A stretch of DNA of 64,000 nucleotides from Candidatus Forterrea multitransposorum CG_2015-17_Forterrea_25_41 (GTDB lineage Archaea > Iainarchaeota > Iainarchaeia > Iainarchaeales > CSSED10-239), in the NCBI GenBank assembly GCA_009392915.1, contig CP045477.1, positions 224,001 to 288,000 of the forward strand, given 5' to 3'. The number at the start of each line of letters is the position of its first letter. Positions within the stretch are counted from its first letter, which is position 1. Shown piece after piece: positions 9,363 through 48,100 of this stretch. The notes below the pieces were generated by a model, which searched no databases, had not been told where the DNA came from, and worked only from the letters and a program-made list of their open reading frames with translations. Made by a program: the position numbers and the translations under genes.

Positions 9363-12300
9363 ATGGTTAAAGATAAAAATAATTTAGGCTCAAATGAAAA
9401 CAATGAAAATAAACAAAATATTTTTTCAAGATTTTATAATTATCTTGAAGATAAATATTCTTCTTTATCAAACTGGCTTACAGAAAAAGGAATACCATTA
9501 AATAATTTAAATAATTATTTAGAGGAAAAAGGACTTCCTGCTTTTGCAATAGTTGCATCTATTTTATTATTATTAATCTTTATAATTGTTTTCTTAATTA
9601 TCTTTTCTTTTTCCAGTCAATCAACATTAATTTTTTCTGTTAAAGATTATTCTGGACTTTCAATCAATGATGCTTTTTTAAAAATTACAAATAGTTCAGG
9701 TAAGGAAATCTTTTCAGGAACTGTAAATGATACTGATGTTAAAAAATTAAAATTAAAATTAGGAGAATTATATTCTTTTAAATCAACTAAAGATGGATAT
9801 CCTGATTTTTCAAAATCAATAACTATTACTGATAAAGATCAAAAAGTACAAATTACTTTTTCAGAATCAATTGAGTATGGTATATTAAGAATAAAATTAA
9901 TAGATAGAGATAATAAAGGAATAATTACTTCAGGAACTGCGATCGCAAGATATTCAATTAATAATGCTCCTGAGTCTACAGAAAACATTGTAAATATTGC
10001 AAATGAACATTTTATTACTTTAGAAGTTCCAATGAATAAAGATATTGAACTTTTAGTTAGTGCAGATGGTTATGAAGATTTTAAAGAAACAAATTTTAGA
10101 ATAACTTTAGAAAATCAAGAAAAAGTAATTGAAATGGATATTTCTTCTTTATCTTTTGAAGGTAAAAGTCAAGTTACTTTTGTTGTTTTAGATACAGAAC
10201 AAAATCCAATTGATGGTGCTTTAGTAAGCATATATAATCTTGGAGATGAATTATTAGATTCAAAAAATACAATTGATGGAAGAGCTTTATCTTTTATTGA
10301 TAGTGGTTCTACAATATCTTATAAAGTTGAAAAAGAAGGTTATAGAACATTTGTAAGTGATCCTGAAGTTTCTTTTAGAATTACAAAATCTGAAATAACT
10401 TATAATGTTACTTTAGAAGAGGGTGGAAATTTTTTAGATGTGTTTGTAAAATCTGGTTCTAATTTTTTAGCTCTTGGAGATGTTGCAATTACTGTTTATG
10501 ATTTAAATAATAATATTATTAATTCTGGAAATACAGATGATTTAGGAAATTTAAAATTAACTGGTCTTTCTGATAAAGCACCAATTGTTGTAACTGCTTG
10601 TAAAGAAGATTTCCTTTGTGAAAATTTAACAGTAGATCTTTTAGAAAAAAGTTCAGTTGAGTTTACTTTAGAAAGAATAGATGTAACAAATAGTGCTATT
10701 CTGTCTGTTTTTGTTGTTGATGAAAAAAATTTACCGATCTCAAAAGCTTTTATAAAAATCTATCAATTACTTGAAGATGATAAAGAAGTTCCATACAACA
10801 CATCTCTTCAAACTGATCTTACAGGTTCTCTTTCAATACCTCTAAGAGTTGGAGATTCTTTTATAGTTTATTCATTAGTTGGAGAAGTTCAATATTTTGA
10901 AGAAATTACAATTGATGCTTTAAGAGAAAATAAAATAATTTTTGTAATGGATAATGCTTCTAAAATAATTAAATTAGATCTTTATGATGAAAATGGTTTT
11001 AAACTTACTTCAGGTTCTTTACTTGTAAAAACAAAAGATGGAACTGTTCTTTTTGATGGTAATTTATCTGAAACTGATCAAATAAGTTTTATTTCAGAAG
11101 GCTATAAAGATTTATATGCTGAATACACAGATGTTAATGGTAATAAATCTTCAATTAATTTTAATGCTGATGAATCTGAGTCAGATGGATATATAAGACT
11201 TGATTTTAATAAAGAAGTTAATTTAACAGATTATCCTGTAATTGAGTTTTCAGGAATTGTAGATTCTAAAGGAGTTAAATCAAATTTTGTAACAATAGGT
11301 AAAGAATATTATTTAATTTTTGATGTTTTATTCCCAGAAAATACTTATAAAGGACAAGTACATATTAGAGCTGGTGATGATACTCAAGTTGATGTTGAAG
11401 AAATGAGTTATGGTATAACTGGTTTTTCTGCAATGGATATTTATGATTTTAAATATGGTACAACATATAATAGTTCTCCTCTTCCAGGTTTAATGAATAT
11501 TGATCTTTTAAATGAAGGTTCTTCTCAAGTTTTAAATAAATGGCTTGAACTTAAATGGAATAGTGATCTTCCTTTAGGTAATAAACAAATCAAAGTAAAA
11601 ATAAATGTTATAGATGATTCTTATTCAAAATTAACTTTTAAATATAGAACTTTATTTGAAGAAAATAAATTATACTATAGAGATCCAGTTGACTCTTTAT
11701 TAAACCAAAGTTATTCTTCATCTCAAAAAGGTGCTTTATATGCAGATACAAAAGAAGTAAATATTGATGTTTATAATGTTCCTTTAGATTGTGAAGGTTC
11801 TCAATGTTTGTCATATACTTTTATTGATTCAAAAGGAAATGAATTTTCAAAAAATGATTTCTATGCTGTAAGAGATGAAACTTATTTTTTAAAAGTTAGT
11901 CTTTATTCTTTAGATAATAAACAATTAGATCTTTTAGCAGAAACTTCAAAAAGTTTCCCTTTAATTTCATTTGGTTCTTTTTCAGATAATCTTTATCAAA
12001 ATGAAATAATAAATGATAATTCTTTATTTGAAATTTCAAGAGATGGTTTTTTACTTTCTGAAAATTCTTTAAAAAATATTTATCTTTCATTTATCTCAAA
12101 AGATATTGGTGCTGCATATATTGATCTTAAAGCAACAGATGTTATTTTAGGAAATGAAATTTTAAACAATAGATTAAGTTTTAATGTTTATGATAAAAAA
12201 GAAATGAATGTTTTAGTTTCTCCAAGTAATTATGTTGATTATGGATCAAATTTTACTGTTGATGTTTTAGATTCAGTTTCTCTTGAACCTATTACAGATG

Positions 12301-15300
12301 CTTTTATTTCTTTTTATGATGTTAGAGATACTTTTATTTCTTCTTTAAAACCAAGTAATTCAAATGGAAGGAATGGAAAATATACTATTACAAATAATTT
12401 TAATACTTCAACTGTTAAAATGGTAGTTGAAAGATATGGTTATCTTCCTTATGAAACTGAAATTTATATTATTGATAATACTTTATTAAATGCAATTCCT
12501 TCAGAAATAATTTTTAATTTAGGTCTTGACCAAACAGCATCAACTTCAAATTTTAGTTTAGAAAACTTAGGTAATTATCAAGCAACAAATGTAAGGTTTG
12601 GAGAACCTATTTGGATTGAAGGTAGTGCTGGTATTTATCTTGAAGGAAGAGGTAATCCAATAATTAATAAAAACTCAACTCAAAATTATCAATTGTTACT
12701 TACAACAGAAAATGATGTTGAACTTAAAACAGCATATGCACATCTTCCAGTATATGCATCTGTAGGTCCTAGAGAAGTTACAAAAATATTAAATGTTAGA
12801 ATAAATAAAGGTTTAATGTTAAATGAATGTGTTGAAATTACTCCTTCTGAAGTTTCTTCTTTTGTTGGACTAAATGTTTCTTCAAATTATGCAGATCCTT
12901 TTAATACTCCTTTTGCAGATTATGATTATACTTCAAATACTTCAAATAATCCTATGCTTGCACCTTCTCAAAGTTATTCTAATTATGAAGAATATTTAAA
13001 TTCAAGTGGATATAACATTACTGATTCAACAGATAATGGTTATACTTACACAGATTCTAAAAATTATACTTATCATGCAACTTCTCCTGCTCTTAATTCT
13101 CAAATTACTGAAAACACAACTTATTTTACAATTAAAAATAATTGTTCTCAAGCTATAACTTTTAATCCTCAAGCAGTTTTAACTTCTTCATCATCAAATA
13201 ATAATTTAGAAGTTTCTCTTGCAAACATAACTGTTCTTCCAGGAGAAGAAAAAGTTTATGATGTTATTTTAAAAAATTCATCTGAACTTAAAAGAAAAAC
13301 AACATATACCTATAATGTTTTATGGCATAATAATTATTATTCAATAGCTCCTTCAGTTTTAAATGTTGATCTTTTAGATTTAAGTAGAGCTTTATGGGTT
13401 ATGCCACAACAAATAAATATTCCAATCTCTCAAGTACATCCTCAACAAGCTGCTGAAAATTATACTAGATTTTTTATTAAAAATATAGGTGCTGTTCCAA
13501 TAACTGATATACAAATAAGTCAGTATCCAAAAATGGTGTCTTCTAATATTAAAATAACTGAATATCCAAGACAAGTATCTGTTTTAGAACCAGGAAAAAC
13601 AATTCCTGTTGATTTAAAATTTTCAGTAAATATTAATAAATCTACATTAGATAATGCCTTTATACAAGTAACTGGTAAAGCTGTTGGTATTAGTGAACCA
13701 ATTACTTCAACAACACAATTAGTGTTTTCAATTTCTTCTCCAAATTGCTTAAAAGTAAGTAATAAAAATATTAATTTTGATTTAGAAGTTGGGGAAACAA
13801 GAGCAAGAAATATTACAATTACAAATCAATGTTCTGAACCTGTTACAATAGTTGGAATTGATAAAAAACAACAAGGATATTATCAAGCATATGGGGATAA
13901 TTCTTTTAGAATAACTCCTGCTTCTGGTAATCCAATAATTCCTGTTAACATGTCAAATTCTTATAGAATAGAGTTTACTGCAAATTCTTTAGGTGGTTCT
14001 CCAAAAACACCAATGATACTTCAAGGTAGATTAATGAATTCAGGTAATCCTGTAACTTCAGAAGAGGTTTTAGTTTCAATAACTATAGATGATATAATGG
14101 TTGGAGAAGAAGCTGAAAGAAATATTTCTATTTTATCTTCTCTTCCTTCTTGTGAAGATCCACAAAATATTAATTCATATAATAGACCATTAATTTCAAT
14201 TAAAGATTGTTCTGAAACTTCAGGATATTGTGATGGAGAATCTTCAGCTGAATTAATTTTAAAAAAAGTAAATGAACTTCAAAATGAAATTAAACAATTT
14301 TCTGCACAAACACAATCAAAAGTAATTGATACTGGTTGTACTCTTCAAGATGCATATAGTGGTTTTTGTAAAATATCTGAACTTGGTGGAGGAATTGATC
14401 CTGTTGAGTTTTCTTTCTTTATGCAAAATGATAATGTTACACCTGATTTAATTAAATCTATTTTAACAAAATCAAATTATTCTTTTAAAAATTATTTTGT
14501 TGAAACAAATATTTTTAATAAAGAAATTAAAACTATAAATCAATATTCTTCTTATGGGGTATATGCTGGTGGAAATAAAATATTTGTATCTCCTCACCTA
14601 TCAGGTTGTGGAAAATATACAGTAGAGATTGATGGTTATGTTGCTGCAAGTCCAGATTATATTTATCCTGAAAGAGCATATTATTATATTAATGTTGTAG
14701 AAAAAGATACTAACACTATTCATTGTGAGAAAAATATTGTAAATTATTTAAATTATCTTCCATGGGATCTTTCTTTTAATAAAAACCAAAGAGCAGGAAC
14801 TTGGCTTACTTTATTTACTGGTGATGAAAATTTATCAAAAGCTTTAATTAAAAGTGTGGGTAAGTTTAAGTCAGATGAAATTGATTTAAGATATGTTTAT
14901 AATAAAGATGTTTTATCTACAAGAAATAGTACTTTAAATGTTTCAACTGGAGAGATTTCTGAAAATAAAGAAGCTCTTGCAAAAATTTCTTTTAATGATA
15001 CTTCTTTAAGAAAAAGCTCTTCTCCAGAACAAATAGATATTACTTTAAATTCTCTTTATAATTCTCCTGAAGGTAAAACTTCTGAGTATGCTGTTAAAGA
15101 TTTTTCAAAAGTAATTTCTTCAATGATTTCAGATAATGATTATTCTGCAAAAGTTTGTATTTCTGAAGATAAAACATATATGCTTGTTTTAGATGTTATT
15201 TCAGCAGGAGATTTAACTTTTGTTGATAAAGAAGTAAGTCTTCCTTTAAAGGATGGAGCTTCATGTTCTTTATTAAAAGTTAAATCATCAGTTCCTGAAA

Positions 15301-17378
15301 CTTTAAAGATTACTTCTGATTCTTTAGAGTTTGCAAATATTGGTTTTAAGAAAAATAAAGATGATACTCTTCAAGAGTCATTAGATATTAGTGTTATTGC
15401 AAATAAAGATTCTAACTTTTATATGTGTGTAACTCCAAATTCAGAGACTGCTATCTCAAGTCTTGTTGATAAAAAAATAACTGTAACAGCAACAAGTATT
15501 TATTCTGCAAGTGGTAGTATTGGAAATAGAAGCACAACTTCAGAAGTAGCTTTCTCTTCATGTGCAATCACACCTGAAGATTATCTTTTAGGTATTTATT
15601 CAAATATTTTAACTGAAAATAATAAAGCTGAAGATGATAGAATCTTACCTCAAAATTATACAGCTATTGTAGATTGGGATAAACAATATAATCCTGAAGA
15701 AAAAGAAAAATTATGTTCAACTTTACAAAAGATTGTAAATAGTAAAAAGTATAATGGAGAACTTTTCTTTGATTATGAAGTTTTAGGTTGTGAGATTGAA
15801 GATTCTTCACAAGAAAGAGATTCAAGAATAAGTAAAGGATTACATAATGCTGGACAATATTTCTTTTCTTGTTCAGGAGCTTGTGGACTTTGTTATGGTC
15901 TTTCAGGACTTATAATGCCTACACAATTTGTAGGTGCAATTGTTGATTGTTTAGGTTTCTCTTGTTTATTACCTTCATTAAATATATTTGCATCAAATCT
16001 ATCTAATGGAGAAGGTGGAATATCTTGGCTTTTAGATGAATTTTTTGGATTATTATTAAATGATGATGTTAGTTTCTTTTCAAATATTACAAGTGAGATT
16101 GAAACATGGGTAAGTGGTGTTTTAGGTGTTGGAGGAGCTGCAACAAGTGGAGCTTTAAAAGCTAATGCTGCTTCTGCTGCTGTACCTTTAGATCAAGTTA
16201 CTCAAGACTTAGTTTCACAATCTAGTTATGATCCTACAACACAACAAATATTAGATGATTTAGCAAATCCATCAACAACACCTGCTCCTGTAAATCCATC
16301 AACAACTTCTGGTGTAATTAATGGTTCTACTGAATTAAAAAATTTAAATAGTCAATTAAATAATTTAAATAGATATTTAAGTGGTAATGACAATATTAAA
16401 TTACAAACATTTTCAAACCCACAAGAAGCAGGTAGATTTAGTGATATCCTTAGAAAAATGAATCAAACATCTGGATCTAACTTTGATAAATTGAGATCTT
16501 TATCTACTCAAGAGTTTGATGATTTTGTAAATATTCTTGAAAAACAAAATTTTACAGGTAAAAATAGTCATTTATTCAAAAAAGACTTACTTATTAAAAG
16601 ATTAAAAGATGCTAAAGTAAATGATTTCAAATCAGTTTCAGCTGCAACTTCTTCAAGTGCAGCAGCTACATCTAGTAGTGCAGCTTCAGTTGCTGATGAT
16701 TTCTATGATTACCCTAAAGCAGATTATGATCAAGCAATTAAAAATTTTGATAATGATATTAAAATGCTTGATGATTCAATAAGTAATCTTGAAAATCAAA
16801 AAGCAGCAATTGAAACTAATGCAAAAAGATCATCTGCAAATCCTAAAAAAGCACTTCGTTATAAATCAAAAGTTGATGCTCAAATAAAAGCAATAGATAG
16901 TCAACTTGATGAACTTAAAAAAAGTAAAGATGCTCTTTCAAGTGTTAAATCTAAATTTGCTTCAGCTAAAAATGTAAATGGTACTTATAAAGTTCCAACT
17001 TCTGCAATTGATGATTTATCAAATAATATTCCAAAACAAGCAAAACTTAGCAAATTATCTAAATTTGCAAAAATTAAAGGTGTTGCAAAAAGCTTTGGAA
17101 GAGGCCTTCTTTGTGGTGCTACAGGAAATGCTGCAGGAATATATTCTTTAAAAGAAGAAGGTAAAACAGGACTTAATAAATCAATAGAGTTTTTAAGTAA
17201 AAATGATTTTGAGAAAAATATATTCTATGTTTCAGAAGTTGATATGTTATCTCCAGAAAATGATCAAGAATACGAAACAAGATATACAATTAATATAAAA
17301 CCTTATATCTCTCAAGATCAAAGTATTATTTCTTCAATTCCTACAAAAAGAATTGATTCTTGTACTATAGAAGAATAA
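9363..17378 (+). CDS. Giant (2671 aa) signal-anchored surface protein: conserved cytoplasmic N-motif, one TM helix, at least 8 CarboxypepD_reg/Ig-like beta-sandwich repeats, Cys-containing modules, and a C-terminal hydrophobic/Ala-Ser-Thr-Pro-rich/coiled-coil tail
   Basis: The N-terminus is ...FYNYLEDKYSSLSNWLTEKGIPLNNLNNYLEEKGLPAFAIVASILLLLIFIIVFLIIF. Repeated about 80-aa modules follow (e.g. VTFVVLDTEQNPIDGALVSIYNLGDELLDSKNTIDGRALSFIDSGSTISYKVEKEGYRTF). There are dozens of NxS/T sequons. The tail carries the PSTTPAPVNPSTTSG linker, SAATSSSAAATSSSAAS and heptad-like segments. Confidence 0.8.
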   Translation: MVKDKNNLGSNENNENKQNIFSRFYNYLEDKYSSLSNWLTEKGIPLNNLNNYLEEKGLPAFAIVASILLLLIFIIVFLIIFSFSSQSTLIFSVKDYSGLSINDAFLKITNSSGKEIFSGTVNDTDVKKLKLKLGELYSFKSTKDGYPDFSKSITITDKDQKVQITFSESIEYGILRIKLIDRDNKGIITSGTAIARYSINNAPESTENIVNIANEHFITLEVPMNKDIELLVSADGYEDFKETNFRITLENQEKVIEMDISSLSFEGKSQVTFVVLDTEQNPIDGALVSIYNLGDELLDSKNTIDGRALSFIDSGSTISYKVEKEGYRTFVSDPEVSFRITKSEITYNVTLEEGGNFLDVFVKSGSNFLALGDVAITVYDLNNNIINSGNTDDLGNLKLTGLSDKAPIVVTACKEDFLCENLTVDLLEKSSVEFTLERIDVTNSAILSVFVVDEKNLPISKAFIKIYQLLEDDKEVPYNTSLQTDLTGSLSIPLRVGDSFIVYSLVGEVQYFEEITIDALRENKIIFVMDNASKIIKLDLYDENGFKLTSGSLLVKTKDGTVLFDGNLSETDQISFISEGYKDLYAEYTDVNGNKSSINFNADESESDGYIRLDFNKEVNLTDYPVIEFSGIVDSKGVKSNFVTIGKEYYLIFDVLFPENTYKGQVHIRAGDDTQVDVEEMSYGITGFSAMDIYDFKYGTTYNSSPLPGLMNIDLLNEGSSQVLNKWLELKWNSDLPLGNKQIKVKINVIDDSYSKLTFKYRTLFEENKLYYRDPVDSLLNQSYSSSQKGALYADTKEVNIDVYNVPLDCEGSQCLSYTFIDSKGNEFSKNDFYAVRDETYFLKVSLYSLDNKQLDLLAETSKSFPLISFGSFSDNLYQNEIINDNSLFEISRDGFLLSENSLKNIYLSFISKDIGAAYIDLKATDVILGNEILNNRLSFNVYDKKEMNVLVSPSNYVDYGSNFTVDVLDSVSLEPITDAFISFYDVRDTFISSLKPSNSNGRNGKYTITNNFNTSTVKMVVERYGYLPYETEIYIIDNTLLNAIPSEIIFNLGLDQTASTSNFSLENLGNYQATNVRFGEPIWIEGSAGIYLEGRGNPIINKNSTQNYQLLLTTENDVELKTAYAHLPVYASVGPREVTKILNVRINKGLMLNECVEITPSEVSSFVGLNVSSNYADPFNTPFADYDYTSNTSNNPMLAPSQSYSNYEEYLNSSGYNITDSTDNGYTYTDSKNYTYHATSPALNSQITENTTYFTIKNNCSQAITFNPQAVLTSSSSNNNLEVSLANITVLPGEEKVYDVILKNSSELKRKTTYTYNVLWHNNYYSIAPSVLNVDLLDLSRALWVMPQQINIPISQVHPQQAAENYTRFFIKNIGAVPITDIQISQYPKMVSSNIKITEYPRQVSVLEPGKTIPVDLKFSVNINKSTLDNAFIQVTGKAVGISEPITSTTQLVFSISSPNCLKVSNKNINFDLEVGETRARNITITNQCSEPVTIVGIDKKQQGYYQAYGDNSFRITPASGNPIIPVNMSNSYRIEFTANSLGGSPKTPMILQGRLMNSGNPVTSEEVLVSITIDDIMVGEEAERNISILSSLPSCEDPQNINSYNRPLISIKDCSETSGYCDGESSAELILKKVNELQNEIKQFSAQTQSKVIDTGCTLQDAYSGFCKISELGGGIDPVEFSFFMQNDNVTPDLIKSILTKSNYSFKNYFVETNIFNKEIKTINQYSSYGVYAGGNKIFVSPHLSGCGKYTVEIDGYVAASPDYIYPERAYYYINVVEKDTNTIHCEKNIVNYLNYLPWDLSFNKNQRAGTWLTLFTGDENLSKALIKSVGKFKSDEIDLRYVYNKDVLSTRNSTLNVSTGEISENKEALAKISFNDTSLRKSSSPEQIDITLNSLYNSPEGKTSEYAVKDFSKVISSMISDNDYSAKVCISEDKTYMLVLDVISAGDLTFVDKEVSLPLKDGASCSLLKVKSSVPETLKITSDSLEFANIGFKKNKDDTLQESLDISVIANKDSNFYMCVTPNSETAISSLVDKKITVTATSIYSASGSIGNRSTTSEVAFSSCAITPEDYLLGIYSNILTENNKAEDDRILPQNYTAIVDWDKQYNPEEKEKLCSTLQKIVNSKKYNGELFFDYEVLGCEIEDSSQERDSRISKGLHNAGQYFFSCSGACGLCYGLSGLIMPTQFVGAIVDCLGFSCLLPSLNIFASNLSNGEGGISWLLDEFFGLLLNDDVSFFSNITSEIETWVSGVLGVGGAATSGALKANAASAAVPLDQVTQDLVSQSSYDPTTQQILDDLANPSTTPAPVNPSTTSGVINGSTELKNLNSQLNNLNRYLSGNDNIKLQTFSNPQEAGRFSDILRKMNQTSGSNFDKLRSLSTQEFDDFVNILEKQNFTGKNSHLFKKDLLIKRLKDAKVNDFKSVSAATSSSAAATSSSAASVADDFYDYPKADYDQAIKNFDNDIKMLDDSISNLENQKAAIETNAKRSSANPKKALRYKSKVDAQIKAIDSQLDELKKSKDALSSVKSKFASAKNVNGTYKVPTSAIDDLSNNIPKQAKLSKLSKFAKIKGVAKSFGRGLLCGATGNAAGIYSLKEEGKTGLNKSIEFLSKNDFEKNIFYVSEVDMLSPENDQEYETRYTINIKPYISQDQSIISSIPTKRIDSCTIEE

Positions 17379-37800: not shown

Positions 37801-40800
37801 CTTTTGAAATACAAGCTATAAAGTCAAAATATTTTTCTCAGAATGTTTCTTTTACAATCGGAACTGATATTTTAGATGTTTATTCTCAAGAGCAAATATT
37901 ATCTTCTGAAAGTCCACTTGAAGTATTTATTCATAAAACAAATATTAATGGTGAAACTTATTCTTTAACTTTAAAAAACAAAACAAACTATGCTTTAAAA
38001 ATTAATCAATTTAATACTGAAGATTTTTCTTTTAATAAATCTTATTTACTTAATTTAGAGCAAACTGTTAATTATCTTAATAATCAAATAACTTCTCAAG
38101 CAGAAGGTTTTGTAATTCCTGCAAATGAATCTAAAGAAATTGTAATTAAGTTTGCCCCTTCAGATTCTGCAAGAACTCATCCTGTTTCAGAAGATATTTT
38201 AGGTGCAATTACAGGAAATTATTCTTTAAATAATTATGATTATCGTTTTACAATTCCTGTTAAAGCAAAATTTTCTGTTGGAAGTGGTGTTTTATTTGAT
38301 GATTGTTTAGTTGTAACTCAAAGTCCAGGAGAATGGAATACTGTTGTTTCTACAAGTACTCAAACAACTTCTTTTACAATAAAGAATACTTGTCTTTCAA
38401 AAGAAGGAGAAGTCCCAATACCTATTAAAAATGTACAAGCAAAGATATCTTCTCAAGCAGATAGATATGGTGTTTATTTCTTAAACCTTATAGGCCCATC
38501 TTCTTCAAATCAAATACAGTTGTCTGAAAATTACTATAGAGTTGTAATTGATCAAATGGCTCCTGAAGAAGAATATAGAGTTGATTTAACATTTAATACT
38601 AATGGTACAAGATTTGCAGATGTTAAAACAAATATACATCTTAATGCTCAAGTAGAAACTGAAGATGGTTTATCTTTTGTAAATAAAGAACCTAAAGATA
38701 TTTTCTTAAAAACAAATATTTCAATAATGAATCTTAATGATTGTTTTTCATATATTGATCAAAATGGAAAAGTAATTAATTCAGGTGGTCTTTATACTTT
38801 AGAAGGTATTGAAGAAAATGAATTAACTATTAGAAACAATTGTCAAGGAAAAGCTACTTTTAAAATGAATCTTTGTGATGCTTATGATTTAGGTTGTAAT
38901 GATTTAATTATTACAAATACAGATGAAGAAAATAATATTTTAAGATTTTCACTTAACGATTCTGAAAAAACAGTATATATTAAAAAAGATTCAACAAAAG
39001 CACCTGGTGCTTATATTCTTAATAACAGAGTCTCTGTTATAAATAATTTTGAAAGAGAACTTGCATCTTCTTTTGCTCTTTTAAAAATAAATGCAAAAGA
39101 TCCTAATGGTTTATGGATGGAAGATCCTTTTATAGAGATTAATGAAGATAAAGTTTCTGAGATTAAAAGATTATATAATAATAATTTAGAAAAGACTCCT
39201 TGGGATTATGCAAGTTATTATCAAGGAGAAGAAGGTTTTGGAAAATTTATAACAAATATTTATTATACAGGAAATACTTGGAAAAAATCTTTTAATCAAC
39301 ATTGGAGTAGATGTATAGCTGGAGATGATACTTGTTTATTTAACGGGGATAATTCTTTACTTTCAATGAGATTTTTACCAGAAAATCAATTAAGTAATGT
39401 TGGTGCAGAAGGATTAAGTGCAGGTGGTGCAATTGGGATAGGAATTGGTACTGCTGCAATTGTTTCATTAGTTTTAATTATGGCAAAAGTTGCTGTATTA
39501 GGAAGTCTTTTAGGACCTGTCGGTTGGATAGTTGCTGGACTTTCAATTGTTGTTGCATCAATAGCACCATCTTTCTTTTCAGATTATGATGTAGATGTGC
39601 AACCAAGGTTTTTGGATGTTTCTGAAAATAATACTATTGATAATTTAGTTGCTTTAAAAGAAATATCTGTAGATGATTTAAGTGATCAAAAAGAATTAAT
39701 TAATGTATTTGATATTACTGGTGCAAGATATTTTAAATATTTTAATAATGTTATTTTTGCACATGGAAAACTTGCTTCTAAAAAAGAAATTAAAAGTGTA
39801 CTTCCAAAATGTAATGGTATAAATAATTTAGTGCCTGTTGATCAATTTTTAAAAGTATATAATAAACCTCCATTTTGTGATGAAATAACTATAGAAGAAA
39901 CTGAAGATTCTTATATTTATAAAACAAGTTGTAATGGACAAAAATTAAATAGACTTGAATTAAATTTATTCTATAGTGCTTATTCAATATGTAAAAGTGA
40001 TGAAACATATTGGCCAGAACAAGCAGGTATAAAACCTTTACAGTTTAATTTAACTGATGAAATATATAATTTATTAGATAATGATTCTAAAAAATATTAT
40101 TTTAAAAAATATGAATTTAATCCAACTTTAGATGATTCAAATAGCACACAAGATTTAGCTTTTGTAGATTCAGATAGTGTAGGAAATTATAGATTTGGTT
40201 TCTTTTTAACAAAACCTGAAGAAACACCAAATTATGATCTTTCATTACAAGAATGTGTAACTGATACTGGAAGAACTGGAAAAACAGGAGAAGGTGCAGT
40301 TCCAAATATTTCTCTAAATTGGAATTGGGCTGAAACTGATTGTGCACAAACATATTGTGATGCAACTCAATTAACTCAAGATGTTTTAGATAGAATTAAT
40401 GATGCTGAAAAATTAATTTCATCAAATGTTGTTCAATGTCCTATAAGTAATCAAGAACTTTATGACCAAGCATTAAATGGTTCTTATAAAGTAACTGCAG
40501 AACCATCTGATGTTATTAATGAAATACCTGTTGGAAAAGTAGGTATTAATTCTGTAAAATTAGATTCTCAAAATAATAAATTAGCAATAAAAGTAGTTTT
40601 AGAAAACAGATCTGATACACCATCTTCAGGAACTATTGTTATTAGTCTTGATGATAAACAATTAGAATCTATAAAATACAGAGATGTAGCTTCAGGAGAA
40701 TATATTGAAGAAAATATAGATTATCCTGGATCTTATTCAAAAAGTATAACTGTTCCTTCTGGTATTGATAATACTAATGAAATAATTTTTGTTTATAAAG

Positions 40801-42248
40801 AAGGAATTTATGGTGAAGACTTACCTTTAACTATTGATTATTTAGCAACAAATTCACATAGTAATATGTTTGCTTCAAGTGTTGATTTATCAAGTTATCA
40901 AGCAGAAGAAATCAATGAGTGTCAAGTTCCAGCAACAACTGCAAGATTTGATGGAACAAGTTATTTAGATATGTGGCTTAATAAAGAAATGTATCCTGAT
41001 AATGTTGTAGGTTCTGGTTGGTCTCAAACTGATATTACAAAACTTAAAGAACTTTTAGAGTTTGATGCATACTTAATAACAGATAATTATAATAGTAATT
41101 TTAAAAATGACTTTGATATGGCCTTCGGTGGTCTTGCTTCAAAAGAAGATGGAGCTGGAGCTGGAAATTATGCTATAATGTCTTCTCCAACTGTGTTTTC
41201 AAATGGTTATCTTTCTAAATTATTTAAAAACAATTTAATATTTACAAAAGAATATTCAAGTGAAGAAAATGTAAATATTAATGTTCCAGGAAAATATAAA
41301 ATTAAAATTGATTTATTATTTGAAAATGGTTCTTGGAATTTTTATGAAGGTGATGATCTAGATGTAAATGCATTTGTAACTTTTAGATTTATTTCTTCTC
41401 CAGAAACAGATAGTGTTTTCTATAGAATGCCATTTAATGGATTTGTTGGAAAAACAACTTCTGGATATGATAGACAAGGTTATGGTGTTTCTTACTTAGG
41501 AGATTCTATAAGAGTTGATAATGAAAATGTAATTACAGAAGAAGATTATGGTTCAAATTCATTAAGAACAATAACTGTTACAAAATCAAATGATCTTTCA
41601 AGAATTAATTCAAATATTGAAACAAGAGGTAATCTATTAAGTATTAAATATAATCAAACAGACAATGTAGATTTAATATTTACTCCAAGCACACCAATTC
41701 CTTTACTTATGAGTATTGATAAGAGTAATAATAGCCCTCTTAATGTGATTTATAGACTTAAAGATAAGAGTGGTAATGCTATTAGTTCAACTTCTTTATT
41801 AAGATGGACAGGTGTTGGTTCTGGTTGTGACTTTTCTGGTAATTCTATATATAATATGACTTATTATGATAGATATGCTGGAGATGAAGGTGCAGTTTCT
41901 GCATATGTAGTTGATTGGCCACAAGTCTTAAGAACAGGAAAAATATATTTAAGAACTGTTTTCTATAGTCCTGAAAGAGAGTCTTATTCTTTAGAGAATA
42001 GATCTGATCAAGGTGTTATGGTTAAGTTTTCAAAGAATGGAACTAATTATTCTTCTTCAGTTTCTTTAGGTGAAGATGATTTAACAGGCATTAAATCTAT
42101 TTCAGATGTATTTAATTTAATTAAAGATAATAAAGTATGTGTTGTAAATTCATATGATGGAAAAACTTCTGATTTCTTTTATAATCCTTCAGAAATTTTT
42201 ACAGAGAAGTTTACAAAACAACCTTCTGATTCTTTAGAATGTAGTTAA
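34848..42248 (+). CDS. Giant (2466 aa) signal-anchored surface protein, paralog; it has an internal hydrophobic hairpin and C-terminal module B
   Basis: The N-terminus WQNFLTKIDNRIPIKKITGPLDKKNPLTSFFIFLLIILVVLYLIF is followed by beta-sandwich repeats and the shared CGEDFCFSGQYVDVSQDLRYD module. An internal segment reads GGAIGIGIGTAAIVSLVLIMAKVAVLGSLLGPVGWIVAGLSIVVASIAP. The C-terminus (FYRMPFNGFVG..RQGYGVSYLGD, WTGVGSGCDFSG, IYLRTVFYSP) is homologous to 31938..34832. Confidence 0.8.
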   Translation: MSFKDAWQNFLTKIDNRIPIKKITGPLDKKNPLTSFFIFLLIILVVLYLIFGSSITLNNQKLTEVTIRLADSDNNILDNFDFKIRNISDGITNSYVTNSSGSLTLELDLNKKYLLIIDSPNYELLEEEINLSLDSLNFIVTVLDTPINYLKTVYFEDALTNSLIEDSLNVTIRCDNGEIITPNTIDTQSGSVEINVPLECENIYASVRGDRYIEENLEMPITESTFKLESITEILESGRVSISVFSGEDIIQDSITIKIFSVDDSITPINTTQTTNGIGFFNSIPVGEYIVKASDVSNRYLQKQEQVTIIKNSLSEITFDLIDTDTDSPIIIDPDTNQEIVIREVTVFVKDKDSGEIIDSSFDPSVTLLLDGNENIEQRNLNEGFIFNISEDKSYSLKATAEGYIPGEIIPIISGKNTYIFNLEKITISNVSNLNITVQDEDLKPIVGLKSWIYDKDGQYIDPRFDFSTSDENGNIVFENIPDLNFTIKVKNSFIEETSSMYHNSPPEDTNITLPVEIGTGTVNLTVKNKLNDIVSNAQVTFYSESLEVLGSSFASSNGTLENDLKADKRIFIKIEADGYLPYFTELFRIYKNKTVTKEIILERENLSDDVSVEFLGLYNSLDTEVESLKNNEVFYFKFKAIMPVSSQHFNFVFRAGSFTSVTEDIVFIMPQNTSLGIPVYYENEPFNESGNYLESKLVDIEFLGYPASVHEITIPIRIKNAAINERVSFFYDSSINNIDFMSNNFNQLQYFIEATSLCGEDFCFSGQYVDVSQDLRYDISSNNLISTNIHSDYILEYQITNSSSNSFEDVRLSTRNLNNDDNPVAMININSYSISGEATSVGQTIEGENNFNIPFTGDEINLEKINPFSSINYTLNVTPLNLGQSKLTNRIISLQEEIYSLPINFSVSELETMEIDYEPKNIVPGLPFDLLVTVKDTQGEYLEGVNINILQKVRNEYITVSTGKTTDPQGNVIITLPSLRPGETFEIQAIKSKYFSQNVSFTIGTDILDVYSQEQILSSESPLEVFIHKTNINGETYSLTLKNKTNYALKINQFNTEDFSFNKSYLLNLEQTVNYLNNQITSQAEGFVIPANESKEIVIKFAPSDSARTHPVSEDILGAITGNYSLNNYDYRFTIPVKAKFSVGSGVLFDDCLVVTQSPGEWNTVVSTSTQTTSFTIKNTCLSKEGEVPIPIKNVQAKISSQADRYGVYFLNLIGPSSSNQIQLSENYYRVVIDQMAPEEEYRVDLTFNTNGTRFADVKTNIHLNAQVETEDGLSFVNKEPKDIFLKTNISIMNLNDCFSYIDQNGKVINSGGLYTLEGIEENELTIRNNCQGKATFKMNLCDAYDLGCNDLIITNTDEENNILRFSLNDSEKTVYIKKDSTKAPGAYILNNRVSVINNFERELASSFALLKINAKDPNGLWMEDPFIEINEDKVSEIKRLYNNNLEKTPWDYASYYQGEEGFGKFITNIYYTGNTWKKSFNQHWSRCIAGDDTCLFNGDNSLLSMRFLPENQLSNVGAEGLSAGGAIGIGIGTAAIVSLVLIMAKVAVLGSLLGPVGWIVAGLSIVVASIAPSFFSDYDVDVQPRFLDVSENNTIDNLVALKEISVDDLSDQKELINVFDITGARYFKYFNNVIFAHGKLASKKEIKSVLPKCNGINNLVPVDQFLKVYNKPPFCDEITIEETEDSYIYKTSCNGQKLNRLELNLFYSAYSICKSDETYWPEQAGIKPLQFNLTDEIYNLLDNDSKKYYFKKYEFNPTLDDSNSTQDLAFVDSDSVGNYRFGFFLTKPEETPNYDLSLQECVTDTGRTGKTGEGAVPNISLNWNWAETDCAQTYCDATQLTQDVLDRINDAEKLISSNVVQCPISNQELYDQALNGSYKVTAEPSDVINEIPVGKVGINSVKLDSQNNKLAIKVVLENRSDTPSSGTIVISLDDKQLESIKYRDVASGEYIEENIDYPGSYSKSITVPSGIDNTNEIIFVYKEGIYGEDLPLTIDYLATNSHSNMFASSVDLSSYQAEEINECQVPATTARFDGTSYLDMWLNKEMYPDNVVGSGWSQTDITKLKELLEFDAYLITDNYNSNFKNDFDMAFGGLASKEDGAGAGNYAIMSSPTVFSNGYLSKLFKNNLIFTKEYSSEENVNINVPGKYKIKIDLLFENGSWNFYEGDDLDVNAFVTFRFISSPETDSVFYRMPFNGFVGKTTSGYDRQGYGVSYLGDSIRVDNENVITEEDYGSNSLRTITVTKSNDLSRINSNIETRGNLLSIKYNQTDNVDLIFTPSTPIPLLMSIDKSNNSPLNVIYRLKDKSGNAISSTSLLRWTGVGSGCDFSGNSIYNMTYYDRYAGDEGAVSAYVVDWPQVLRTGKIYLRTVFYSPERESYSLENRSDQGVMVKFSKNGTNYSSSVSLGEDDLTGIKSISDVFNLIKDNKVCVVNSYDGKTSDFFYNPSEIFTEKFTKQPSDSLECS

Positions 42249-42321
42249 AAGTAATATATATAAATATATTGCTTAACTATATTTTATAGGTTTAATATAT
42301 ATATATTAGGTTAGTATAATT

Positions 42322-42684
42322 ATGAGAAGATACATTTATTTATTTTTAATCGTTTTCTTAGTTTTTCCATTTATTTCTGCACTTAGTTATGATAATGAAA
42401 TCTATGTAAACCCTTTTGTTTTTGGTGTAATTAGAGGGGATGATGGGGAAGTTATTTCAAATATTTCTGATGATGAAATAATAGATCCTGAAATGCAAGT
42501 TTCAAGTGCAAATGGGTTTACTAAAAAATCAGATCTTGATTTAACCATAAGAGAGAATCTTTTGATTTTTAAACTTCCTTCTTATCAAAAAACAAATAAT
42601 AATTCTTTAAATAAATATACTTTTATTTATAATACCTTTGATTATCCTTCAAAGAATGTAAATATTTTATTTAAATTAAATTGA
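42322..42684 (+). CDS. Small secreted protein (signal peptide)
   Basis: MRRYIYLFLIVFLVFPFISALS is a signal peptide. The stop overlaps the next gene's start (ATGA). Confidence 0.4.
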   Translation: MRRYIYLFLIVFLVFPFISALSYDNEIYVNPFVFGVIRGDDGEVISNISDDEIIDPEMQVSSANGFTKKSDLDLTIRENLLIFKLPSYQKTNNNSLNKYTFIYNTFDYPSKNVNILFKLN

Positions 42685-45110
42685 GAAAATATATGAGATA
42701 TTTAAAAAAAATTATTTTAACAGTAATATTAATTACTTTTATTTTACTAGTTCAATCATATGTGTTTTCAGCAAGTTGTAATTTAACTCCAAATCAAACT
42801 TCTCTTAGAACTCTTTCTTTAGGTTGTAGTGGTGATGCTTGTGATTTTGTTTTAATTAAAAGTGAAGATGTATCTTCTCAATATAATTCTTGTATTGATT
42901 CTTGTGATCCTGATAATTATCCTGAAAATTACAAAACTTGTATGACTGATTGTTATGATTCTTCAATTAATTCTACAACTGATATTTCATTAAACAGTTC
43001 TTTAAGTTTTTCAAAATCTTCTGAATGCTCTGATAAAGAAATAAATGTTTCTTTAGCAGCAGATATTAATTTTGAAATGTTAAATGAAACAACTTCTCTT
43101 TCAATTTCAGGTATTGATTCTTTAAATACTAATGGAAAAGATATTATAATTTTTGTAAACAATAATGATAAACTTGGAGATGCAACTTTTAGGTTTGATT
43201 TTAGTGATTTAATAATTTCTGATACTTCTAAAATAATTATGACAACAAAAGAAAGAACTTCAATTACAGATTCTATTAATGGTGGGTGGGATGATTGGAA
43301 AAGAGATGGTATTAAACTTTATTTTAATAATTTAGAAATATTAGAAAATGCATCACTTGATTTAAATATGTATATTCCTAAAAATATTTTTAATGTAATT
43401 GATGAAATAGATATGCCTAGAACTTCACTTGCAGGTGGTGAATTAACTTTTGATGGAAACTTAATAGTTAATAATGGTAATTTAAATATTTATCTAAAAG
43501 CACAAGATAGTCAAGATGGTAGAAATTATATAGATTCTGGAAATTGTTTTGATGATCCAGCTTCACAAGGTGGAACTGTTAAAGAGGCAGGGCACATATT
43601 TTTTAACTTAAATTATTTAGAGAATAATGGTTTACTTTTTTCTAAAATGTTATCTGGAAATGGTGGTATTGGAGGTAATGGATCAAAAGCTCAGGATGGA
43701 TGTCGTGGAGATCCTCCAGGTCATGGTGGTAGAGGGGGAAATGCAGGAGATATTTTTTTATATATTAATAATATAGATAATACTAGTAATATTGATTTTA
43801 ATTTAATTGCAGGAAATGCTGGTCCTGGTGGAGATACAGGTTTTGATGGTGGAAATTCTCGTGAAAATTTTGCTATTGGAGGTTCTGGTGGTAATGGAGG
43901 AAATATTTATTTTTGTAAACCAATTTGGAATTCTGGCTTTAGTTGTTTGATAAATAATTATAATTCATTAATAAATAAAGGTAATTTTAATTTAGTTGCA
44001 AATACTGGTTTTGGAAATAATGGTGGAAATAAGAATAATCATCCTGATGAAGGTAGAGCAGGAGATGGAGGAGATGGTGGTTCTTATTTATCAAGTTTAA
44101 CGTTTGATTTTATAAGAAACTCTGGAAATTTAAATATTGCTCTTGAAACAGGTTATGGTGGTTTTAAAGGAACTACTGATGGTGGTGAAGATGGTGTTGG
44201 TGGAAGAACTCCTAATTTTTTTATTAATTTCTTAGAAAATTCTTCTGAAAATTTAAATATATTTTTAAACAGTAAACATGAAATTGGTAATCTTGAATCA
44301 GATGTTATTATTGATAAATTACAAAATGGTAGTTATCTACCAAGTATGATATATACTGTTTTTACTGATTGGACTTTTACACCTAGTGAAGAGTGTGCAA
44401 TTAGTTGTCAATCTAAATTTGATTCTTGTTATCATTTGCCTTCAGCTTGTAATAGATTTTTAGATATGTGTTTATATACTTGTGATAAAACTACAGAAGA
44501 TCTTGAAACTGTTACACAAAATAGAAAAATAAAAATTAATGATGCATGTTATGTTAAACAACCATCAAGTGCTTTAGATTATATGACTGGATTTATATAT
44601 GTTAATTCTGCAAATAAAGATGTTTTTGAAAATCTTCTTCCAGAAAATGTTTCTTCTAATCTTACTAATAACTCAGAATGTGTAATCTGTGATTATTATG
44701 ATTTTGAAAATTTAAATGAAATATTTCCAACAGGTTCTGGAAATAAATTCTTTAAAAACTATACTTTATATTCTACAGTTCAAGGAAAAATTAATGCAGG
44801 AGATTTAGAAATACATTATGCTAAAAATGATCTATCTTTTACAAAAATAAATAAGCTTTATAATCCTTTTACAAAAGAAAATAATCTCCCACTTTATTCT
44901 AATAAACAAGATATAACAAGTAGTCAAGAACCTAATTCTCTAGGTTTGTATGAATATAATATAGATGCAAGTAATCTTGAATGGTATTATGATAAAGAAA
45001 TGGACTTATCAGAAAAAGATTTATATTGTTATAATCAAAATTATAGAATTGAAGGAAAAATAGGAACTAAGATTTTTAACTTCCCATTTACTCCATTATT
45101 TAAAAATTAA
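42681..45110 (+). CDS. Secreted Cys-rich / Gly-rich repeat protein (beta-solenoid-like GGxGG repeats)
   Basis: A signal peptide is followed by a Cys-rich N-domain (CNLTPNQTSLRTLSLGCSGDACDF...CIDSCDPDNYPENYKTCMTDC). The central region has periodic Gly-rich repeats (GNGGIGGNGSKAQDGCRGDPPGHGGRGGNAGDIFLY...IAGNAGPGGDTGFDGGNSRENFAIGGSGGNGGNIYF...GFGNNGGNKNN...GDGGDGGSYL...GGEDGVGGRTPNFF) separated by N-rich strands (NLNIAL, NLNIFL). The C-domain is Cys-rich. Confidence 0.6.
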   Translation: MRKYMRYLKKIILTVILITFILLVQSYVFSASCNLTPNQTSLRTLSLGCSGDACDFVLIKSEDVSSQYNSCIDSCDPDNYPENYKTCMTDCYDSSINSTTDISLNSSLSFSKSSECSDKEINVSLAADINFEMLNETTSLSISGIDSLNTNGKDIIIFVNNNDKLGDATFRFDFSDLIISDTSKIIMTTKERTSITDSINGGWDDWKRDGIKLYFNNLEILENASLDLNMYIPKNIFNVIDEIDMPRTSLAGGELTFDGNLIVNNGNLNIYLKAQDSQDGRNYIDSGNCFDDPASQGGTVKEAGHIFFNLNYLENNGLLFSKMLSGNGGIGGNGSKAQDGCRGDPPGHGGRGGNAGDIFLYINNIDNTSNIDFNLIAGNAGPGGDTGFDGGNSRENFAIGGSGGNGGNIYFCKPIWNSGFSCLINNYNSLINKGNFNLVANTGFGNNGGNKNNHPDEGRAGDGGDGGSYLSSLTFDFIRNSGNLNIALETGYGGFKGTTDGGEDGVGGRTPNFFINFLENSSENLNIFLNSKHEIGNLESDVIIDKLQNGSYLPSMIYTVFTDWTFTPSEECAISCQSKFDSCYHLPSACNRFLDMCLYTCDKTTEDLETVTQNRKIKINDACYVKQPSSALDYMTGFIYVNSANKDVFENLLPENVSSNLTNNSECVICDYYDFENLNEIFPTGSGNKFFKNYTLYSTVQGKINAGDLEIHYAKNDLSFTKINKLYNPFTKENNLPLYSNKQDITSSQEPNSLGLYEYNIDASNLEWYYDKEMDLSEKDLYCYNQNYRIEGKIGTKIFNFPFTPLFKN

Positions 45111-45133
45111 TTTAAAAAAAGAGAAGAAAGAAT

Positions 45134-48100
45134 ATGTCAATATTTAAAAAATCAAGAGACAAAATAGAAGCAGAAAAGCTATATGCTCTTTTATCAGACA
45201 AAACTACAAACTATACTCTAGAGGATATTAAAGAGACTATTAAAAAACAAGGTTATTCTGATAAAGTTTCTTCAATTGTTGTAAAGATGATTACAGATAA
45301 TAAACTTCCTTTAAAAGATTCAGTTAATAAAACAAAAACAAAAGAAGAAGTCTTAAAAGAATTATCAGCTTCTGTTGATAAAAACTTCTCTAAACAAAAT
45401 CCAAAAGATTCTTCAAAAGATTCAAAAAAAGAAGATAAAAATAATCAAAAAGAAAATACAAAAAAACAAGAAGATATTAAAAAAGAAGATTCTAAAAAAC
45501 AAAAAGAAGATCTTAAAAAAACAAAAGAAACAAATTTAAAAAATATTAATAAAGTTCCTTTCTTTACAAAAGTAAAAACTTTCTTTAAAAGAATATATTT
45601 CTTTTTTGAAGATAATTACTATAAGATGGTTGATGGTGTAAGTAAAGTTATACCTCTAAACAAATTAACAGACAAAATAGATAAAGTTTTCCCAAGTTTC
45701 ATATTATTCTTATTAATCTTAGCTTTATTGATATATTTAATACTTTCAGGAAGTTTATCTTTCTCTAAAACTTGGACAGTTGCTGTAGAGGTTTATGACC
45801 CATCTTCTGTACCCTTAAAAGATGTTTCTGTAACTTTAATGCTTAAAGATGAAAATTTTTCAACTTTAAAAACAGATATTTTTGGTGAAGTTATTTTTAG
45901 TGATTTTAAATCTAGAAAACAAAATATTAATTTAATAGCTTCTAAAGATAATTATGATACAGTTGAACATTCCTTTAAATTAAGTAAAAGTAATTTAAGA
46001 CAAAAGTTATATCTTCCAACAGATGTAAATTCTAAGATTGATCCTTCAGAAGAAGAAGTAAGAGAAATTTCTTTTGTTGAAAATAATACTGTTTTAATAA
46101 CAGATTCTGTATTAACTACAAATTTTTCTTGTACTAATGCAGATGTAGAACCTAATCCTACAAGAAAAGTTATTTCTTCAGGAAAGGTAACAGTTACAAC
46201 TTATTCTGGTTGTGGTGCTTTAAGAGTTTCTGTAACTTCAGATGATTTTTCTTCAATTACAAATCAAGTTATAAATTCTTCAAATAAAGTAAATCTTACA
46301 AGAATTAATCTTGATAGAGGTAATTTAGGTTTCTCTGTTAAAAACATATCTGGAAGTTCAATTCCTGGAACAGAAGTTAAAGTTTATAGTTCTTCAAACA
46401 CTACTTTTCCTCATGATACAACCACAACTGATCTTTATGGTTTAGGTGAGTTTAGTTTAGAACCTAAAAGTTATTTTTTAACTTTCTCAAAAGAAGGTTA
46501 TCTAACAAATCCTTTAAAAGGTCCTTTAACTGTTATTAAAAATGATTCTGTAAACACAGATGTAGTTTTATTTACTTTAGATGATCTTTTAGAATTTGAT
46601 TGTTCTGATGATAAATATTCACAATTTTGTATTGCTGATGAAATTGATTGTTTTAATCCAAACTTAAAACCATTTTTAATAAATAATGCTGATGGTTCTT
46701 GTACAATTGGAAGACCAGGTTATATTTCTGTAACTTTAAAAGATGTTAATTCTGGAGAACCTGTATATGCAGATATAACTTTAGATTCAAAATTAAAAGA
46801 ATCTGATCAAAACTTTTCTCTTGGTGAACATATTGCAAGGGATACTAATTTCTATACTTTTAATGTTATTGATTTCTATAATTATAGAGTAAGAGTTTTA
46901 AATACAGAAGAGAGTGGTTATCTTCAACCAGATCCAGTCACTGTAAACGGTATTGATCAAAATATAACAGTTAATTTAGAATATTCTTCTTCCCTTAACT
47001 CAGGAGATATTTCAGTAAATGTTAAGAGTGCAGATATGCCTATCTCAAATGCAAGAGTTTATTTATATAAAGAGTTTGAAGATGATTTTGTTTTAGTAAA
47101 TTCTGATCCATTATTTACAAATCAAAATGGAGATGTTAATTTTTATTCTCAAAGAGCAAATAGAGATTATTATGCTTATGCTTTACATAATGTTTTAGAT
47201 AAACAAGGAACTTCACAAACAGATGATTTAGATGTTAACTCAATACTTGATTTATCAATAGATCTTGAAGATATTCCAAAGATATTAAATCTAAAGGTAA
47301 GTCCAAGTATTTCTTATGATATTAATTTTTATAATTCTTCAGATAATCTTGTAACTGAATATGTAAGAACAGATCTTGAAGATGGAAATTCTCTTTATTA
47401 TTTTACAGGTTCTATAAATAAAGTTTATGCAGTTGTTTCTTCTTCAGGTTATACTACCTATCAAACAGATTATATTACTTTAATACCTGATCAAGAAGTT
47501 TATAAAACAGTTAATCTTTCTACACTTTCTTCTTGTGAAGACTCTAAGTTAGAAATTTTAGGTCTTTATGATGGTTCTGGAGTTTTAGAAATTGATAATA
47601 TTGATTTTGTTGAAAATGATTTAGATAAAGAATACAGATTAAAGTTTAAATATATTTCATGTACAGAAGATGAAGAATACAATCAAGCTACTTTAAGACT
47701 TGGAAGACAAGGTTTAATAGATGATGAATATTTATTCTTTGTTTCAGATCAATTTACTTCTCAAGATATAGATGTTACAAGAGGTTATAAATTTTCACAA
47801 GAACATATACCTGACTTTAATTTTGATCTTTTCAATCTTAATTATTCTCAAGATAGATCTTATGATTATTCTGGTGAAGGTTATAAATGGATTGAAATTG
47901 ATTTTGAAAAATTAAATTCTGATATCTTAGAGTTTTCAACTAACTTTAAGTTCAGAGAAGATTCAATTGTTCCTTTTGAAAACTATGTTTTAAATTATAA
48001 ATCATTTGCAAGTATTTATGATGAACTTTATTCTTTTGATCCTGTTTTAAATGAATCTTGGACAGAGATACCAATCTATCCTAATGGTTATTTTTATGCA

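Follow-up and report, generated by a model that had tools for sequence, protein, structure and literature searches.

The closest described counterparts of the proteins analysed here are the adhesin-like proteins (ALPs) of Methanobrevibacter and Methanosphaera and, in bacteria, the conserved extensions of giant adhesins. ALPs are large archaeal surface proteins with repeated immunoglobulin-like/β-sandwich domains and a cytoplasmic N-terminus, and are typically anchored by one N-terminal transmembrane helix (PMC11532034). The bacterial ESPR is a conserved extension that precedes the hydrophobic export segment of very large surface adhesins only; it is not a targeting signal itself, and proposals that it affects transit and assembly have not settled its role (PMC8151025). 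The YSIRK-G/S (PF04650) and KxYKxGKxW motifs are likewise conserved in the export region and mark large surface proteins, the known cases directing where or how the protein is secreted. Among DPANN archaea, whose surface proteins are presumed tools of a host-dependent lifestyle and of which almost none are characterised, SPEARE and the Nanohaloarchaeota giants take up a large share of a tiny genome, are surface-exposed and are thought to contact the host (PMC6642349, PMC10266531). Here we analysed a 64,000-nucleotide stretch of the genome of Candidatus Forterrea multitransposorum (contig CP045477.1, positions 224,001 to 288,000; hereafter the window), in which five giant proteins of 1,867 to 2,671 residues share an N-terminal module of about 40 residues that leads directly into a hydrophobic helix.

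The window giants are likened to ALPs by architecture, having one N-terminal membrane helix and repeated β-sandwiches, but ALPs have a short Lys/Asn-rich N-terminus with no 40-residue two-helix module, carry ABD/RBH ectodomains and belong to another phylum. ESPR is bacterial (diderm), spans only about 25 residues and is followed by a complete, cleaved n-h-c signal peptide, whereas in the giants nothing separates the module from the hydrophobic helix, which is probably left uncleaved. The YSIRK-G/S and KxYKxGKxW motifs differ from the module in being short, in lying inside cleaved bacterial signal peptides and in going together with C-terminal LPXTG anchoring. The transthyretin/CnaB-like β-sandwich that forms the first ectodomain of the giants is shared with the S-layer stalk protein SlaB and with CnaB fibre and pilin domains; however, SlaB has a C-terminal transmembrane anchor and a normal signal peptide, and the likeness is that of one common domain fold. 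SPEARE and the Nanohaloarchaeota giants come from another phylum and reportedly differ in their domain content. The Micrarchaeota S-layer protein (101 kDa) was also considered and, going by its published description, appears different from the giants. The anchor of the giants is akin to that of the N-terminally anchored archaeal ALPs and to the conserved extensions of giant adhesins, and does not make a new category.

The module itself is an undescribed, phylum-restricted N-terminal domain of giant surface proteins. Comparison with Pfam, NCBIfam and the PDB as a sequence profile gave nothing credible, a Pfam search with six N-termini returned no match at E<=10, and literature searches found no description of the module, its family or this Iainarchaeota giant-protein operon. 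It is the only part of the giants that is nearly constant across the phylum and no database describes it. Its profile provides a precise handle for finding the family, and the module defines a conserved operon made up of a pilin-like gene, the giants and two small membrane proteins. Its face of about 10 invariant residues offers a small, testable target through which to ask how surface proteins of more than 2,000 residues are inserted, oriented and assembled in archaea whose genomes are minimal.

An earlier note, made from the letters of the window, had proposed that the five giants share a bipartite N-terminal motif ahead of their membrane segment. The N-termini that it quoted all match the sequence exactly and its coordinates are right, with the 2,147- and 2,466-residue proteins labelled in swapped order, a slip of no consequence. 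The stretch ahead of the membrane is indeed long, although it measures about 33-187 residues and not the 40 to 170 given. A hidden Markov model (HMM) of the motif, run against a six-frame translation of the window, found the five giants only (54-79 bits, the next best hit scoring 5 bits). Because this model contained the window sequences, it was rebuilt from 109 motif segments of other genomes only and tested on 644 six-frame fragments of the window. The independent HMM ranked the five giants 1-5 of 644, with noise at 6.1 bits or less. Its scores show three giants (2,147, 1,867 and 2,323 residues) to be canonical. The 2,466-residue giant lacks the first box (EDKYY) and retains the second half of the module, and in the 2,671-residue giant the module is weak, with an E-value (1.2e-3) that is significant at the scale of the window. 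The giants and their scores with the independent HMM are as follows.

9363-17378, + strand: giant 1, 2,671 aa; module and transmembrane segment at 9417-9605, divergent; 13.9 bits.
19298-26269, + strand: giant 2, 2,323 aa; module and transmembrane segment at 19298-19483, of the variant KGINLYK…EKNGIPTF; 49.4 bits.
26297-31900, + strand: giant 3, 1,867 aa, the N-terminal two-thirds of a split giant; module and transmembrane segment at 26297-26464; 54.5 bits.
34848-42248, + strand: giant 4, 2,466 aa; module and transmembrane segment at 34848-35000, second module half only; 22.1 bits.
45134-51577, + strand: giant 5, 2,147 aa; canonical module and transmembrane segment at 45578-45742; 57.8 bits.

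The shared motif is real, and the statistics for it are overwhelming. When 1.84e9 proteins (cluster representatives) were searched exhaustively with hmmsearch, 796 carriers were found at E<=1e-3 and 292 at E<=1e-10, so that the motif recurs beyond chance in an alignment-based test of the kind that the earlier note had named. The exhaustive search was used since a word-indexed homology search with motif profiles gave only 3-5 short fragments. Ninety of the best 151 carriers are at least 1,000 aa long, reaching 3,251 aa (median 1,241 aa including fragments), and the short proteins among these 151 are contig-end fragments. Of 265 collected carriers, 215 have the module start at residue 12 or earlier. 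In public databases the carriers are named 'hypothetical protein' or 'carboxypeptidase-like regulatory domain-containing protein' [Diapherotrites/Micrarchaeota/archaeon]. Orthologues of giant 3 (P0229-P0231) bear the JGI automatic names 'nitrate reductase NapAB chaperone NapD / YqgV (UPF0045)', which look spurious on surface proteins of 1,800 aa built from β-sandwiches.

Scanning GTDB at one genome per species confirmed 198 stretches, and the best 75 of these loci (1.1 Mb, 4,827 open reading frames (ORFs)) were analysed. Nearly all of the 75 are from 'Candidatus Iainarchaeum/ainarchaeum' or archaeal metagenome-assembled genomes (MAGs); to these are added two Micrarchaeota MAGs, which contribute three loci, and three contigs that were probably mis-binned. 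The query was a 9-sequence alignment whose patterns favour the canonical subfamily, and the taxonomic spread may therefore be underestimated. A scan of IMG/VR found no relative. In the 75 loci there are 109 module ORFs, all with the module at the N-terminus and all on the strand of the anchor gene, and a single BLAST family takes in 107 of them. The module is the N-terminus of one family and not a portable tag on diverse secreted proteins. The idea that it marks a subset of the secretome was not upheld, and neither is it ubiquitous on unrelated membrane proteins, the carriers being essentially one family of giant proteins.

These giants are collinear homologues, with 22-28% identity across 1,300-1,700 residues. 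A transthyretin/CnaB-like domain is present in 203 of the 216 carriers with enough sequence and begins 17-28 residues (about 22) past the motif in 196 of them. In the window, PF13620 (CarboxypepD_reg) matches four giants at 73.9, 62.8, 53.5 and 38.1 bits (gathering threshold 32.3) and does not match the 2,671-aa giant. The motif had been described as far better conserved than the ectodomains, which is strongly so at the level of the family and only modestly so among the window paralogues. Among 300 random pairs of giants of at least 1,500 aa, identity is 51% in the module, 30% in the transmembrane segment and 24% in the next 300 residues, the last being about the global-alignment value for barely related sequences. 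For the five window paralogues the corresponding values are 21-45% in the module versus 20-25% in the ectodomain.

An alignment of 242 unique sequences gives the consensus xLKxΦY[YF]xΦEDK[YW]YxΦLDK[IL][DN]xx[IV]P[VI]YK[IV][IV]DPIDKVΦPSF (Φ, hydrophobic), followed by a Φ-rich transmembrane segment. Eleven positions (Y6, E10, Y14, D18, P25, Y27, D31, D34, P38, S39 and F40) are conserved in 90-100% of the sequences. Comparison of the profile with itself shows that the module is internally repetitive, scoring 16.1 at an offset of 7 (the heptad of helix 1) and 21.4 at an offset of 13, with all other offsets at 4.5 or less. Helix 1 consists of two heptads, Φx[DE]xYYx, and the 13-residue unit is ΦDxΦDKxΦPx[Y/F], one copy forming the end of helix 1 and the other helix 2. 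P-S-F closes the second copy, and there the transmembrane helix starts. The motif once described as bipartite is therefore helix 1 plus two copies of one unit. Fourteen family members have extensions of 90-213 aa before the module, mostly highly charged (K/E-rich). That of giant 5 (148 aa, 45134-45577) comprises a small conserved domain of about 60 aa and then a K/E-rich linker, and is common to P0025, P0029, P0033, P0096, P0100 and P0147.

Selection acts on the protein and not on the DNA. The motif DNA of 92 genes ranges from 26% to 52% G+C, its identity by codon position is 0.65/0.79/0.40, and the same codon is used at only 46% of identical residues. These codon-position identities and the codon choice exclude a nucleic-acid element as well as recent gene conversion. 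Gene conversion among the paralogues was also rejected on the low identity of the modules within the window and on the variant-specific orthologues found elsewhere, there being such orthologues for each window variant (e.g. KGINLYK…EKNGIPTF, ERTGLYKVTDKIDKVMPSF and FFKRIYFFFEDNYY).

The structure of the N-terminal region was modelled with AlphaFold2 as a monomer (residues 149-298 of the 2,147-aa giant, 28-sequence alignment). The model, with a mean predicted local distance difference test (pLDDT) score of 92.8, has helices at 2-22, 27-37 and 40-56 and a β-sandwich at 65-145, and the two conserved prolines lie at the helix breaks. The predicted architecture is thus helix-kink-helix-kink-transmembrane helix. 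In this model the β-domain begins about 8 residues after the transmembrane helix (about 17-22 residues) and would sit on the membrane. Foldseek matched the β-domain only, which is transthyretin/CnaB-like: the matches were to CnaB2 8bdw (TMt 0.73-0.75), to the transthyretin-like domains of carboxypeptidase D and to SlaB 8qox_B (22% identity over 91 columns). The two cytoplasmic helices are amphipathic, with hydrophobic moments (μH) of 0.41 and 0.75. On their polar faces are the invariant E10, Y14 and D18, joined by D11 and Y7, as well as Y27, D31 and D34.

Each of the five giants has one strong hydrophobic N-terminal segment, with 19-residue Kyte-Doolittle maxima of 2.9-3.6. Across the family the apolar run has a median length of 21.5 residues, as against 16 for a noisily selected set of 54 proteins from the same loci with classical signal peptides, and the uncharged stretch past F40 has a median of 29.5 residues. 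Signal-peptidase patterns are less frequent than in that set, with AxA in 5% of giants versus 22% and [AVSTGC]xA in 28% versus 50%. The net charge is -1.4 in the module versus -1.6 in the flank after the transmembrane segment. At the C-termini of the giants there is no transmembrane segment and no PGF-CTERM-like or LPXTG-like signal, the last 80 residues being hydrophilic, and the N-terminal helix is the only detectable anchor. A second hydrophobic segment was seen in the 2,466-aa giant (aa 1537-1555, AIVSLVLIMAKVAVLGSLL, Kyte-Doolittle 2.43). If it spanned the membrane, the C-terminal domain would be cytoplasmic, in conflict with the signal peptide borne by its 964-aa homologue, so that it is probably a buried helix.

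Taken together, we favour the reading, at a probability of roughly 0.55, that the module is the cytoplasmic foot of an uncleaved type II (N-in, C-out) anchor, and probably also a docking surface, on giant multi-β-sandwich surface proteins. Among the options raised by the earlier note, the evidence favours that of an uncleaved signal anchor offering a docking site in the cytoplasm; its option of a processing site is a possible, weaker reading given the frequencies of [AVSTGC]xA and AxA above. Non-cleavage is favoured because the apolar run is longer, patterns at −3/−1 are fewer, there is no other anchor and some members have extensions before the module. The module is likely cytoplasmic, and both these mostly K/E-rich extensions and an ectodomain of exported type fit an N-terminus on that side. 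The hydrophobic helix would be the signal anchor, left uncleaved, in the Sec-dependent export of an ectodomain of more than 2,000 aa, and the foot would stay in the cytoplasm. There the solvent-exposed invariant residues E10, Y14, D18, Y27, D31 and D34 may form the docking surface, through which all paralogues would bind a common partner or each other. Such binding could gather the giants of a tandem array into a single surface structure, probably one for adhesion or host contact, and could help to keep the N-terminus inside. Both non-cleavage and the docking or assembly role of the invariant polar face are what we infer from these features.

Several observations weigh against this reading. 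Small residues (G/S/P) follow the hydrophobic stretch, making cleavage by signal peptidase possible, and the set of classical signal peptides used for comparison is noisy. The positive-inside signal is weak, and much of the sequence is free to drift, as seen in the two window copies that diverge most. The recurrent membrane neighbours (c6a/c6b and c11, described below) accompany large tandem arrays only, and not the short-type loci. The AlphaFold2 result is a model of the monomer. It is conceivable, albeit unlikely, that the module goes further and is a dedicated assembly or export tag, its feet being recognised by a common machine or co-assembling, so as to give one multi-megadalton, DPANN-specific host-contact apparatus. 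Candidate partners would include c6a/c6b/c11 and the pilin-like 559-aa protein encoded upstream. Were this so, the module would be to archaea what ESPR and similar signal-peptide extensions are to bacteria, except that it is retained and structural.

The alternative that carries most weight is an extended, cleaved signal peptide resembling ESPR, which would modulate the targeting of very large substrates, slow their translocation or tether them for a time at the translocon, and then be removed by signal peptidase I along with the hydrophobic segment. The module is confined to very large exported proteins, as ESPR is to large passengers of the type V secretion system (PMC8151025), the residues past the hydrophobic stretch are rich in G/S/P, [AVSTGC]xA follows the core in 28% of carriers and family pieces without the module use normal signal peptides. 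We nevertheless consider it an unlikely explanation: the hydrophobic run is of transmembrane length, AxA is rare, no separate n-region lies between module and h-region, the invariant P-S-F and the fixed spacing to the β-domain look structural, the giants would have no detectable anchor once cleaved, and the module resembles neither ESPR nor YSIRK models in sequence. Searches for other described classes were also negative. ESPR (PF13018) had no Pfam match at E<=10 in six N-termini, the hydrophobic helix directly follows P-S-F and the host is archaeal; YSIRK-G/S with LPXTG had no Pfam or NCBIfam match and the hydrophilic C-termini have no sorting signal; no RR of a Tat signal occurs in the N-termini of the five giants or in the family logo; and an archaeosortase/PGF-CTERM signal is absent from the giants' C-termini, which have no terminal hydrophobic segment.

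Less probable still is a partner-free element of the membrane interface, in which the helices would lie in the inner leaflet and only fix the N-in orientation, act on or respond to membrane curvature, or bring the giants to a part of the membrane such as a contact site. The amphipathicity of both helices, their wealth of interfacial aromatics (Y/F/W), the Pro kinks between them and a charge bias too weak to set topology alone would all suit such an element, which we hold to be doubtful since five acidic near-invariant side chains on the polar face are unexpected for lipid binding and the identity of the module across the phylum (51% versus 30% in the transmembrane segment) is above what is usual for purely amphipathic anchors. 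Processing by prepilin peptidase as a class III signal was suggested by KG-L/I-P before the transmembrane segment in two window giants, and the operon has a genuine pilin-like gene. This resemblance was not borne out and the explanation is highly improbable: the family consensus is DKVΦPSF, with G/N before ΦPSF in only 21 of 242 sequences, the n-region is about 33-187 aa long and not a few residues, the NCBIfam and Pfam pilin models do not match the giants, and the genuine class III signal is on the 559-aa gene. That the similarity arose by chance or composition in AT-rich, Lys/Tyr/Asp-rich N-termini, or reflects a conserved nucleic-acid element, has practically nothing left in its favour. The window is low in G+C (25%) and two of the five window copies are weak; nevertheless, the 292 matches at E<=1e-10, the second codon positions being 79% identical versus 40% for the third, and the spread of the motif over genomes in which its DNA has 26% to 52% G+C refute it, and besides the giants no ORF scores in the window or in the 1.1 Mb of related loci.

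Pieces of the family that lack the module are informative on its role. The 1,867-aa and 964-aa genes of the window correspond to one giant of about 2,400 aa in other genomes. The split is conserved in the lineage, where the orthologues of the first half are similarly shortened, and the second half, the 964-aa protein, now has its own short Sec signal peptide. Ordinary short Sec signal peptides, typically with A at −1, are found on the 964-aa, 809-aa and 452-aa window proteins and on c5 neighbours, and most of the complete motif-less family pieces elsewhere (L002, L041, L048, L064, L066 etc.) have short classical signal peptides too. Therefore, the module is not needed merely to export these domains, and in these organisms normal signal peptides serve even ectodomain modules of the same kind. 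The conserved foot is confined to the chain with which a giant starts.

Most giants end in a common C-terminal domain of about 700 aa with invariant cysteines and the motifs CDxTQF, PFNGxVG and RxGYG. In giant 4 it lies at aa ~1780-2460 and in giant 5 at aa ~1762-2120; giant 1 is without it. Its AlphaFold2 model (11-sequence alignment) is poor (pLDDT 61.8), and a Foldseek search against the PDB from this poor model gave only generic β-sandwich sub-matches (TM-score ~0.1). In its place giant 1 has, within aa ~2150-2671, a Cys-rich, weakly hydrophobic patch (aa 2190-2208) and after it a long tail, rich in S/A/N and in Lys, which by eye resembles a coiled coil.

The giant-protein operon (9363-52306) spans about 43 kb, which is some 5% of the longest contig with these genes (839,632 bp), and the same gene order is seen again in many metagenome samples; JGI sample 3300008002 is one of many that contain the organism. 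Its remaining features are listed here.

17488-19167, + strand: 559-aa pilin-like accessory protein; class III signal KKG↓FNLFTALISL; 203 bits to the c12 HMM.
31938-34832, + strand: 964-aa protein, the C-terminal part split from giant 3; ordinary Sec signal peptide …VSIPVSA↓ELG ahead of the shared C-terminal domain of about 700 aa.
42681-45110, + strand: 809-aa Cys-rich secreted protein within the array; ordinary Sec signal peptide.
51580-51951, + strand: c6a, small membrane protein with three transmembrane segments and a basic C-terminal tail; 67.2 bits.
51929-52306, + strand: c6b, small membrane protein with three transmembrane segments, a paralogue of c6a that overlaps it by 23 nt; 25.2 bits.
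24893-26266, 32700-34829, 40170-42245 and 50186-51574, + strand genes: the shared C-terminal domain.

Large arrays follow a common order, in which a pilin-like gene of about 550 aa is followed by 2-3 or more giants and then by c6a and c6b. Proteins of the 559-aa type, with the N-terminus KGF[NT]LF[TS]AL, are encoded 90-300 nt upstream of the first giant in 9 GTDB loci. The N-terminus of the window copy, MLRNKKG↓FNLFTALISLMLL, is a class III signal; the protein has no Pfam match, and in NCBIfam only a weak match to a ComGF pilin (E=0.0085). The paralogous c6a/c6b pair (about 125 aa each) directly follows the last giant in 12 related loci, and c11, a polytopic membrane protein of about 160 aa, is sometimes upstream of or between the giants of large arrays. 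None of the c6a/c6b, c11 and pilin-like families is in Pfam. Whether the 809-aa protein belongs to the giant system is uncertain, and it is without a homologue in the related loci. No candidate sorting enzyme, for which the earlier note had proposed to look, is encoded nearby.

A second arrangement is that of the short-type loci (L043, L048, L064, L066, L049 and L055). In these, a module protein of 1,200-1,600 aa is followed by c5 (about 580 aa, with a signal peptide, a Cys-rich region and a C-terminal transmembrane segment) and then by a signal-peptide protein with the C-terminal domain of the giants, all within conserved housekeeping synteny (Ski2-like helicase, NAC, FKBP and proteasome β). 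They carry the module without the c6 pair, which is therefore no obligatory partner unless encoded elsewhere, and this role of c6a/c6b was down-weighted.

Lastly, the window also encodes NurA and histidyl-, alanyl- and prolyl-tRNA synthetases, the latter two appearing by inspection to be of archaeal type. NCBI entries NCP72230-72246 (locus tags GW835_02490-02530) are identical to window proteins, and the closest named relatives are from 'Candidatus ainarchaeum sp.', phylum Iainarchaeota (Diapherotrites), DPANN/Nanobdellati. The histidyl-tRNA synthetase gene (53454-54770) is preceded at a distance of 180 nt by tRNA-His(GTG) (53200-53272), and the prolyl-tRNA synthetase gene (61527-62990) at about 1 kb by tRNA-Pro(TGG) (60380-60454). 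A further tRNA, tRNA-Arg(GCG), is found at 52315-52388.

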